Translations under genes and position numbers: made by a program
Part shown: positions 11,467-11,616 of the stretch, one piece after another
Numbering within the stretch: the stretch's first letter is position 1
How the letters are laid out: each line of letters opens with the position of its first letter
Virus record (IMG/VR): IMGVR_UViG_2526164690_000021
Reading direction: 5' to 3' (one strand)
Origin: a virus
Lineage: Duplodnaviria; Heunggongvirae; Uroviricota; Caudoviricetes
DNA length: 12,182 nucleotides
Notes under the pieces: model-generated
What the model was told of the DNA's origin: nothing
The model's input: only the letters and a program-made list of their open reading frames with translations
Database searches by the model: none

Positions 11467-11547
11467 GCGTTCTCCCCATGAGCATTAAAGGATGCTTAAG
11501 ACTGATGAATCCCCTAATGATTTTGGTAAAAATCATTAAGTTAAGGT

Positions 11548-11616
11548 GGATACACATCTTGTCATATGATCAAATGGTTTCGCGAAAAATCAATAATCAG
11601 ACAACAAGATGTGCGA
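11548..11616 (-). ncRNA. IS10 RNA-OUT antisense RNA (approximate bounds)
   Basis: Placed from recalled IS10 coordinates (RNA-OUT about bp 115 to 47 of the element, antisense to the tnp start); not derived independently from the sequence. Confidence 0.4.

Follow-up and report, generated by a model that had tools for sequence, protein, structure and literature searches.

IS10 inserted 35 nt upstream of an IroE-like esterase gene in an Escherichia coli prophage, with the outward promoter pOUT directed at the gene

The locus described here raises the question of whether an IS10 element, which lies directly upstream of a prophage esterase gene with its outward promoter pOUT aimed at that gene, has taken over the transcription of the gene. 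The window (the whole stretch of DNA analysed, 12,182 bp) is the entire draft contig AIGH01000010.1 of the assembly GCA_000249835.2. The reading toward which the sequence leads us, with some reserve, is a strain-specific transposition of an IS10-Right-type element into the 5' leader/promoter region of the gene for a prophage IroE-like esterase, with pOUT read-through then driving the gene. This interpretation appears mechanistically sound and has close precedents, is weakened by a frameshift in the gene and by the normal termination of RNA-OUT, and can be regarded as partly supported. The event itself is most likely a recent, unselected insertion. The coordinates of the features are collected in Table 1.

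The insertion is in a lambdoid prophage (Rac/Qin-like), within its early region; the bacterium is an EHEC-type E. coli. With the names taken from the annotations of relatives, the prophage genes in the window are those for a recE-like exonuclease, dicB, the DicF sRNA, ydfA/ydfB and a relBE-like pair, together with ydaS/ydaT-like regulators, O-like and DnaC-like replication genes, DUF1627 and DUF977, and then the alpha/beta hydrolase gene on the minus strand. In the relatives, the order is ydaS/ydaT-like, O-like, DnaC-like, DUF1627 and DUF977 (plus strand), the esterase gene (minus strand), the insertion point, and hokD, DUF968, rusA and Q (plus strand). The DicF sRNA was detected at its full length at 3121-3172 on the minus strand, adjoining dicB (Rfam RF00039, 77 bits), which marks the prophage as Qin/Rac-like. 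A pair of a RelE/ParE-type toxin and a RelB/PaaA2-type antitoxin, annotated in relatives, occupies 4843-5321 on the minus strand in the immunity-proximal region of the prophage.

Nucleotides 1-11,501 were compared with the finished O111:H11 genomes 88.0502 and 88-19539 and with strain 12089, and not a single substitution was found. The sole differences from the nearest finished genome were five A/T homopolymers, each shorter by 1 nt, at 4759, 5814, 7818, 10556 and 11360, three of which were unique to AIGH01000010.1 among 20 related loci. Five shortened homopolymers together with no substitutions are what homopolymer undercalling usually produces. The O-like gene (split into 7279-7920 / 7908-8369) and the gene for the esterase are each broken by one of them, and on this pattern both frameshifts look like homopolymer errors.

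The element was identified by comparison of 11502-12182 with Tn10 on plasmid R100, which gave 1 mismatch in 681 nt to IS10-Right (at IS10 nt 203) and 9 to IS10-Left. IS10 nt 1-202, the stretch that carries pIN, pOUT and RNA-OUT, are identical to those of IS10-Right, and an exact copy of the terminal repeat CTGATGAATCCCCTAATGATTTT stands at each outer end of Tn10 on R100 and also in the IS10 of phage CL707. RNA-OUT is present at full length on the minus strand (Rfam RF00240, 98.8 bits with a gathering score of 41, E 3.8e-20), with the transposase ATG at 11609 within the RNA-OUT overlap, and the transposase domain was recognised as DDE_Tnp_1 (Pfam PF01609, 36.2 bits) in the 191 codons that the contig contains, the C-terminal half being beyond it. 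The copy in the window therefore shares with IS10-Right of Tn10 (IS4 family) the outside end, nt 1-202, RNA-OUT, the transposase start and the DDE_Tnp_1 domain, whereas it differs at nt 203 and is represented in the contig by the first 681 of 1329 nt, the inside end being outside the contig. The first-pass annotation had named the element as IS10 with its outside end at the junction, and both the single mismatch to IS10-Right in 681 nt and the terminal repeat bear this out.

At 11704 (IS10 nt 203, the third position of transposase codon 32), A is present instead of the C of both IS10 copies of Tn10 on R100, and the same A occurs in the copy of phage CL707. The 681 nt match many plasmid and chromosomal copies at 100%, and the plasmid copies that are identical over this length thus also carry A at nt 203. 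IS10 was common among the complete E. coli genomes (1,934 of 5,426). AIGH01000010.1 ends inside the element at IS10 nt 681, not at an IS boundary; the stop at 12182 may be due to a second, partial copy at another place, to an interruption within the IS10 copy or to how the assembler behaved.

The junction was located by alignment with the IS-free prophage copies of F6321 and PV15-279, in which the host homology ends exactly at 11501 and the outside end of IS10 begins at 11502. Identity runs through ...GGATGCTTAAGA (ending at 11501), after which the window continues as CTGATGAATCCCC... and the empty sites as TATGCTATGTC. The empty-site string GGATGCTTAAGATATGCTATGTC was present in 16 of the 21 fetched loci, and the IS junction, with GGATGCTTAAGACTGATGAATCCCC as the string across host and IS10, was found solely in the window's own contig. 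No copy of this junction was detected in any of the 5,426 complete E. coli genomes, in which no record covered at least 80% of 10400-12182, and none of the sister draft assemblies had it. An exact-pattern scan for the left junction returned zero matches in species-representative genomes, metagenome contigs and viral contigs. For a complete IS10 with a 9-bp duplication, the right junction was predicted as ...GGGGATCTCTCAG TGCTTAAGA TATGCTATGTC, and an exact-pattern scan for it (TCAG followed by TGCTTAAGA and TATGCTATGTC) returned zero matches in species-representative genomes. The contig itself shows one IS10 end and the left copy of the 9-mer and stops before the second end, and the full element may be either IS10 by itself or an entire Tn10. 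As far as these data reach, the insertion is strain-specific. The boundary that had been placed at 11502 thus holds, with the homology to 16 empty-site sequences breaking off exactly at 11501; the comparison with strains lacking the insertion, which had been proposed as a check and was run here by alignment, gave empty sites that continue uninterrupted past 11501; and the distance of 35 bp to the esterase start was recovered as the 35 nt (11467-11501) between the IS end and the ATG.

Table 1. Features of the IS10 insertion and of the adjacent esterase gene, with positions in the window and the basis of each assignment.
Feature	Position	Strand	Basis or remark
Alpha/beta-hydrolase gene (IroE-like esterase, phrog_8493)	10694..11466	-	Split ORFs; intact 257-aa form WP_000160654.1 in relatives
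T7 homopolymer (T8 in intact copies), site of the esterase frameshift	11361..11367		Alignment with relatives
Residual native leader, 35 nt, with Shine-Dalgarno GGGGAGAA (11477->11470)	11467..11501	-	Sequence and empty-site alignment
Presumed 9-bp target TGCTTAAGA, one copy in the contig	11493..11501		Single copy in empty sites, there followed by TATGCTATGTC
IS10 (IS10-Right type), nt 1-681 of 1329	11502..12182	+	1 mismatch/681 to IS10R of Tn10/R100
IS10 outside-end terminal repeat CTGATGAATCCCCTAATGATTTT	11502..11524	+	Exact string match; empty-site homology ends at 11501
10-bp perfect inverted repeat, IS10 nt 14-37	11515..11538		AU-rich hairpin in outward transcripts, no U tract after it
RNA-OUT antisense RNA	11547..11616	-	Rfam RF00240; 5' end 11616 = IS10 nt 115 = pOUT start
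IS10 transposase gene, first 191 codons	11609..12182	+	Starts with the ATG at IS10 nt 108; truncated where the contig stops
-10-like hexamer TAAAAT (inferred -10 of pOUT)	11624..11629	-	Read from the sequence, 7 nt upstream of where RNA-OUT begins

The presumed target was compared with the IS10 preference NGCTNAGCN, with which TGCTTAAGA agrees at 4 of the 6 specified positions; the GCT half-site is perfect, and the other half has AAG instead of AGC. Outside IS10, the window has 11,493 9-mers, of which 400 (3.5%), including 3 perfect sites, equal or exceed TGCTTAAGA in their match to NGCTNAGCN, and the spacer between the hydrolase gene and hokD alone contains 23 sites with a match of at least 4/6. 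The 9-mer at 11493-11501 is as the first-pass annotation had described it, but to call it close to the target preference was an overstatement for a 4/6 match that 3.5% of 9-mers equal or better. As judged from the sequence, the target is compatible with the loose preference of IS10 and is not a hotspot; off-consensus insertion sites of IS10 are on record (PMC2744996, PMC4574204). The single copy of TGCTTAAGA in the empty sites is consistent with a duplication and is no proof of it. As a separate observation, other IS elements lie nearby in other strains: IS1203 within the esterase gene in O26:H11 genomes and, among the loci L002 (356-2668), L019 (1-334) and L020 (6280-7353), ISEc8 in the DUF977 gene and an IS of the rve type located between the esterase gene and hok. 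Several IS elements in the same neighbourhood suggest that the region is tolerant of insertions.

The outside end is the gene-proximal end of the element, and pOUT lies on the strand of the gene and is aimed at it, with its start at 11616, 150 nt upstream of the esterase ATG (11466-11464, minus strand). The earlier claim that pOUT transcribes on the minus strand toward the esterase gene agrees with the positions of RNA-OUT (11616->11547) and of the ATG (11466), both on that strand. A simple consensus promoter scan missed pOUT, which has no good -35, and its identity instead follows from the 100% identity to IS10R nt 1-202 and from the RNA-OUT match. pOUT was mapped in IS10R by Simons in 1983, as cited in PMC2744996 and PMC9330008. 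Its main product is the 69-nt RNA-OUT, whose 3' end is IS10 nt 47 (PMC5006887). Some of the pOUT transcripts, a fraction given as ~10% of lacUV5, run on into the flanking DNA (PMC9330008, citing Simons 1983), and such read-out can activate adjacent genes (PMC9330008). As RNA-OUT normally ends at nt 47, only a fraction of the transcripts exits the element.

Between the IS end and the gene, the residual leader of 35 nt is too short for a promoter, and the Shine-Dalgarno sequence GGGGAGAA stands 3 nt from the esterase ATG. No terminator-like site was found on the minus strand in 11200-12182, including the interval between pOUT and the ATG, and the folding of the 180-nt pOUT-to-esterase leader gave the RNA-OUT hairpin and the IS-end hairpin, with no stem followed by a U tract. 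Upstream of the gene, the empty site contains a single promoter-like match, ATAACA-16-CATAAT (L003, 14592->14565), which lies ~59 nt beyond the insertion point and has thus been displaced from the gene by IS10. Phylogenetic footprinting of the native promoter gave no footprint, with the 290 nt upstream being identical bar one base in seven diverse loci.

EHEC prophages carry the gene downstream of the leader, whose intact form lies at 13698-14471 of locus L003 in a relative, as an accessory gene on the opposite strand. Over aa 8-253, the protein aligns with IroE of E. coli (PDB 2gzr, E 5e-26), with conservation of the GHSxG serine, the RAYDYTP motif and the C-terminal His; its alignments with BES and with ferric-enterobactin esterases are weaker. 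It reaches 17 bits with the Pfam family 'Esterase' (PF00756), below the gathering score of 22, and had no hit in NCBIfam. The aligned protein, the serine motif, RAYDYTP and the histidine are thus held in common with IroE and the Fes-type siderophore esterases, unlike which it is prophage-encoded and falls below the PF00756 threshold; the likeness is one of sequence. On our own reading of its sequence, the protein differs from them further in having no N-terminal signal or anchor and would be cytoplasmic. phrog_8493 is annotated as of function unknown and WP_000160654.1 just as an alpha/beta hydrolase, and a literature search on the esterase (ECs1077, WP_000160654, and IroE with prophage and O157) returned nothing relevant. 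A role in a defence system was considered and rejected, as no PADLOC hit was obtained.

In the contig, the esterase frame is broken into ORFs of 67 aa and 191 aa by the T run that is shorter by 1 nt, a break that the first-pass annotation had passed over. Four other assemblies, whose prophage backgrounds differ, also have the T7 allele, as do the finished genomes F6321 and AR-0429. The frameshift is possibly a homopolymer sequencing error, and from these occurrences the T7 run may be a true hotspot of slippage or a site at which errors recur. Since the gene is disrupted by IS1203 in O26:H11 strains, it is dispensable.

Under the favoured reading, in which IS10-Right has transposed into the leader/promoter region and pOUT read-through drives the esterase gene, the native promoter would lie beyond 11501 and would now be cut off from the gene by the element (by ~1.3 kb if the IS is complete). 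With a 35-nt leader that holds no promoter and with the native promoter displaced, we infer that transcription of the esterase gene would depend on pOUT read-through, and chiefly on the smaller share of pOUT transcripts that passes IS10 nt 47 and crosses the IS end. The outcome would be a low-to-moderate, constitutive, sigma-70 expression from a message with the RNA-OUT hairpin at its 5' end. Rho-dependent loss of the read-through transcripts would be unlikely, because a strong Shine-Dalgarno sequence stands just 35 nt past the IS end, and so short a distance to a strong Shine-Dalgarno sequence should guard read-through transcripts from Rho.

Precedents for this arrangement were found in the literature. 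In rpoS-null E. coli under osmotic stress, IS10 was inserted in otsBA at +12/+13 with translation from +56 (PMC2744996), which puts IS10 ~43 nt ahead of the ATG; transcription from pOUT entered the operon, the insertion arose repeatedly, otsB/otsA were raised ~10-12-fold and the fitness was 1.25 (PMC2744996). PotsBA::IS10 (Stoebel et al. 2009, PMC2744996) thus resembles the present case in its position in the leader (~43 nt vs 35 nt), in the inward direction of pOUT and in a non-optimal target, whereas it was repeatedly selected with a shown gain in expression and fitness and the esterase case is one occurrence with a possibly frameshifted gene. PMC9330008 lists acrEF in Salmonella as activated by IS10, and for cat in pSU vectors IS10 was found between the promoter and the ORF and promoter activity from the IS10 ends was invoked (PMC4574204); outward promoter activity is reported there for each of the two ends of IS10 (PMC4574204). 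The acrEF and cat cases share with the present one the placement of IS10 between promoter and ORF, with outward promoter activity of IS10 invoked, and differ from it in being drug-selected events with a phenotype, the gene here being a prophage accessory esterase. On this analysis, the present case is a new instance of the long-known pOUT/IS10 phenomenon and offers nothing new about IS10 itself.

The readings that compete with pOUT-driven expression bear on the gene, the prophage and the assembly. The insertion would be neutral or purely disruptive for the esterase if the gene was already a pseudogene through poly-T slippage or was cut off from its promoter, with pOUT being too weak and the orientation being due to chance. 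This is a real possibility, though we judge it rather unlikely. Nothing functional would be driven by pOUT if T7 were real. The T7 frameshift in the contig and the same allele in F6321, AR-0429 and the four other assemblies speak for it; the pattern of five shortened homopolymers with zero substitutions, three of them being unique to the contig, looks like error instead, so that the gene may be intact. The destruction of the gene by IS1203 in O26:H11, the ending of most pOUT transcripts at nt 47 (PMC5006887) and the single isolate with the insertion fit the same reading, against which pOUT read-out is measurable in documented cases of the same geometry (PMC2744996, PMC9330008). The orientation toward the gene, which has a 50% prior, fits a chance event as well. 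At the other extreme, pOUT might have made a silent or regulated prophage 'moron', encoding a cytoplasmic IroE-like catecholate-siderophore esterase, constitutive, with iron acquisition or siderophore turnover altered in the EHEC isolate and the RNA-OUT hairpin stabilising the chimeric mRNA. Such an adaptive change seems far-fetched. The insertion is one occurrence in a single draft assembly, with no sign of selection.

An effect at the level of the prophage, which is compatible with pOUT-driven expression of the esterase gene, is improbable as the explanation of the locus: IS10 would act as a polar block on the rightward early operon, by which the Q antiterminator would be lowered and the late genes and induction crippled. 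Tn10/IS10 insertions are strongly polar, and by the gene order in relatives the insertion lies between the replication genes and hokD...rusA-Q; however, Q may have its own promoter or antitermination, the promoter activity reported from both IS10 ends (PMC4574204) could relieve polarity, and the right-hand side of the insertion is outside the window. Least credible, together with the adaptive change, is a junction that is not natural, which would be a chimera formed by the assembly at a repeat or else an insertion gained in laboratory storage. The low quality of the draft (five homopolymer undercalls in 11.5 kb), the stop of the contig at IS10 nt 681 without a visible cause and the fact that no other genome shows the junction could be read in this way, but the join coincides with the very first nucleotide of the IS10 outside end, beside a 9-mer in which the GCT half-site is perfect, which transposition yields and a misassembly would not, and an origin in laboratory storage would still be real transposition. 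An IS10 artefact from a cloning host was considered separately and is unlikely, as the record is a whole-genome draft contig and not a clone.

For annotation, the value of the finding is that the contig ends in IS10, that the frameshifts of the esterase and O-like genes are probably homopolymer errors, and that the insertion is a marker of the strain. If it is true that pOUT drives the gene, the locus would be a natural example of an IS element rewiring a prophage accessory gene in pathogenic E. coli and would offer an entry point to the IroE-like phage esterase, which is uncharacterised.
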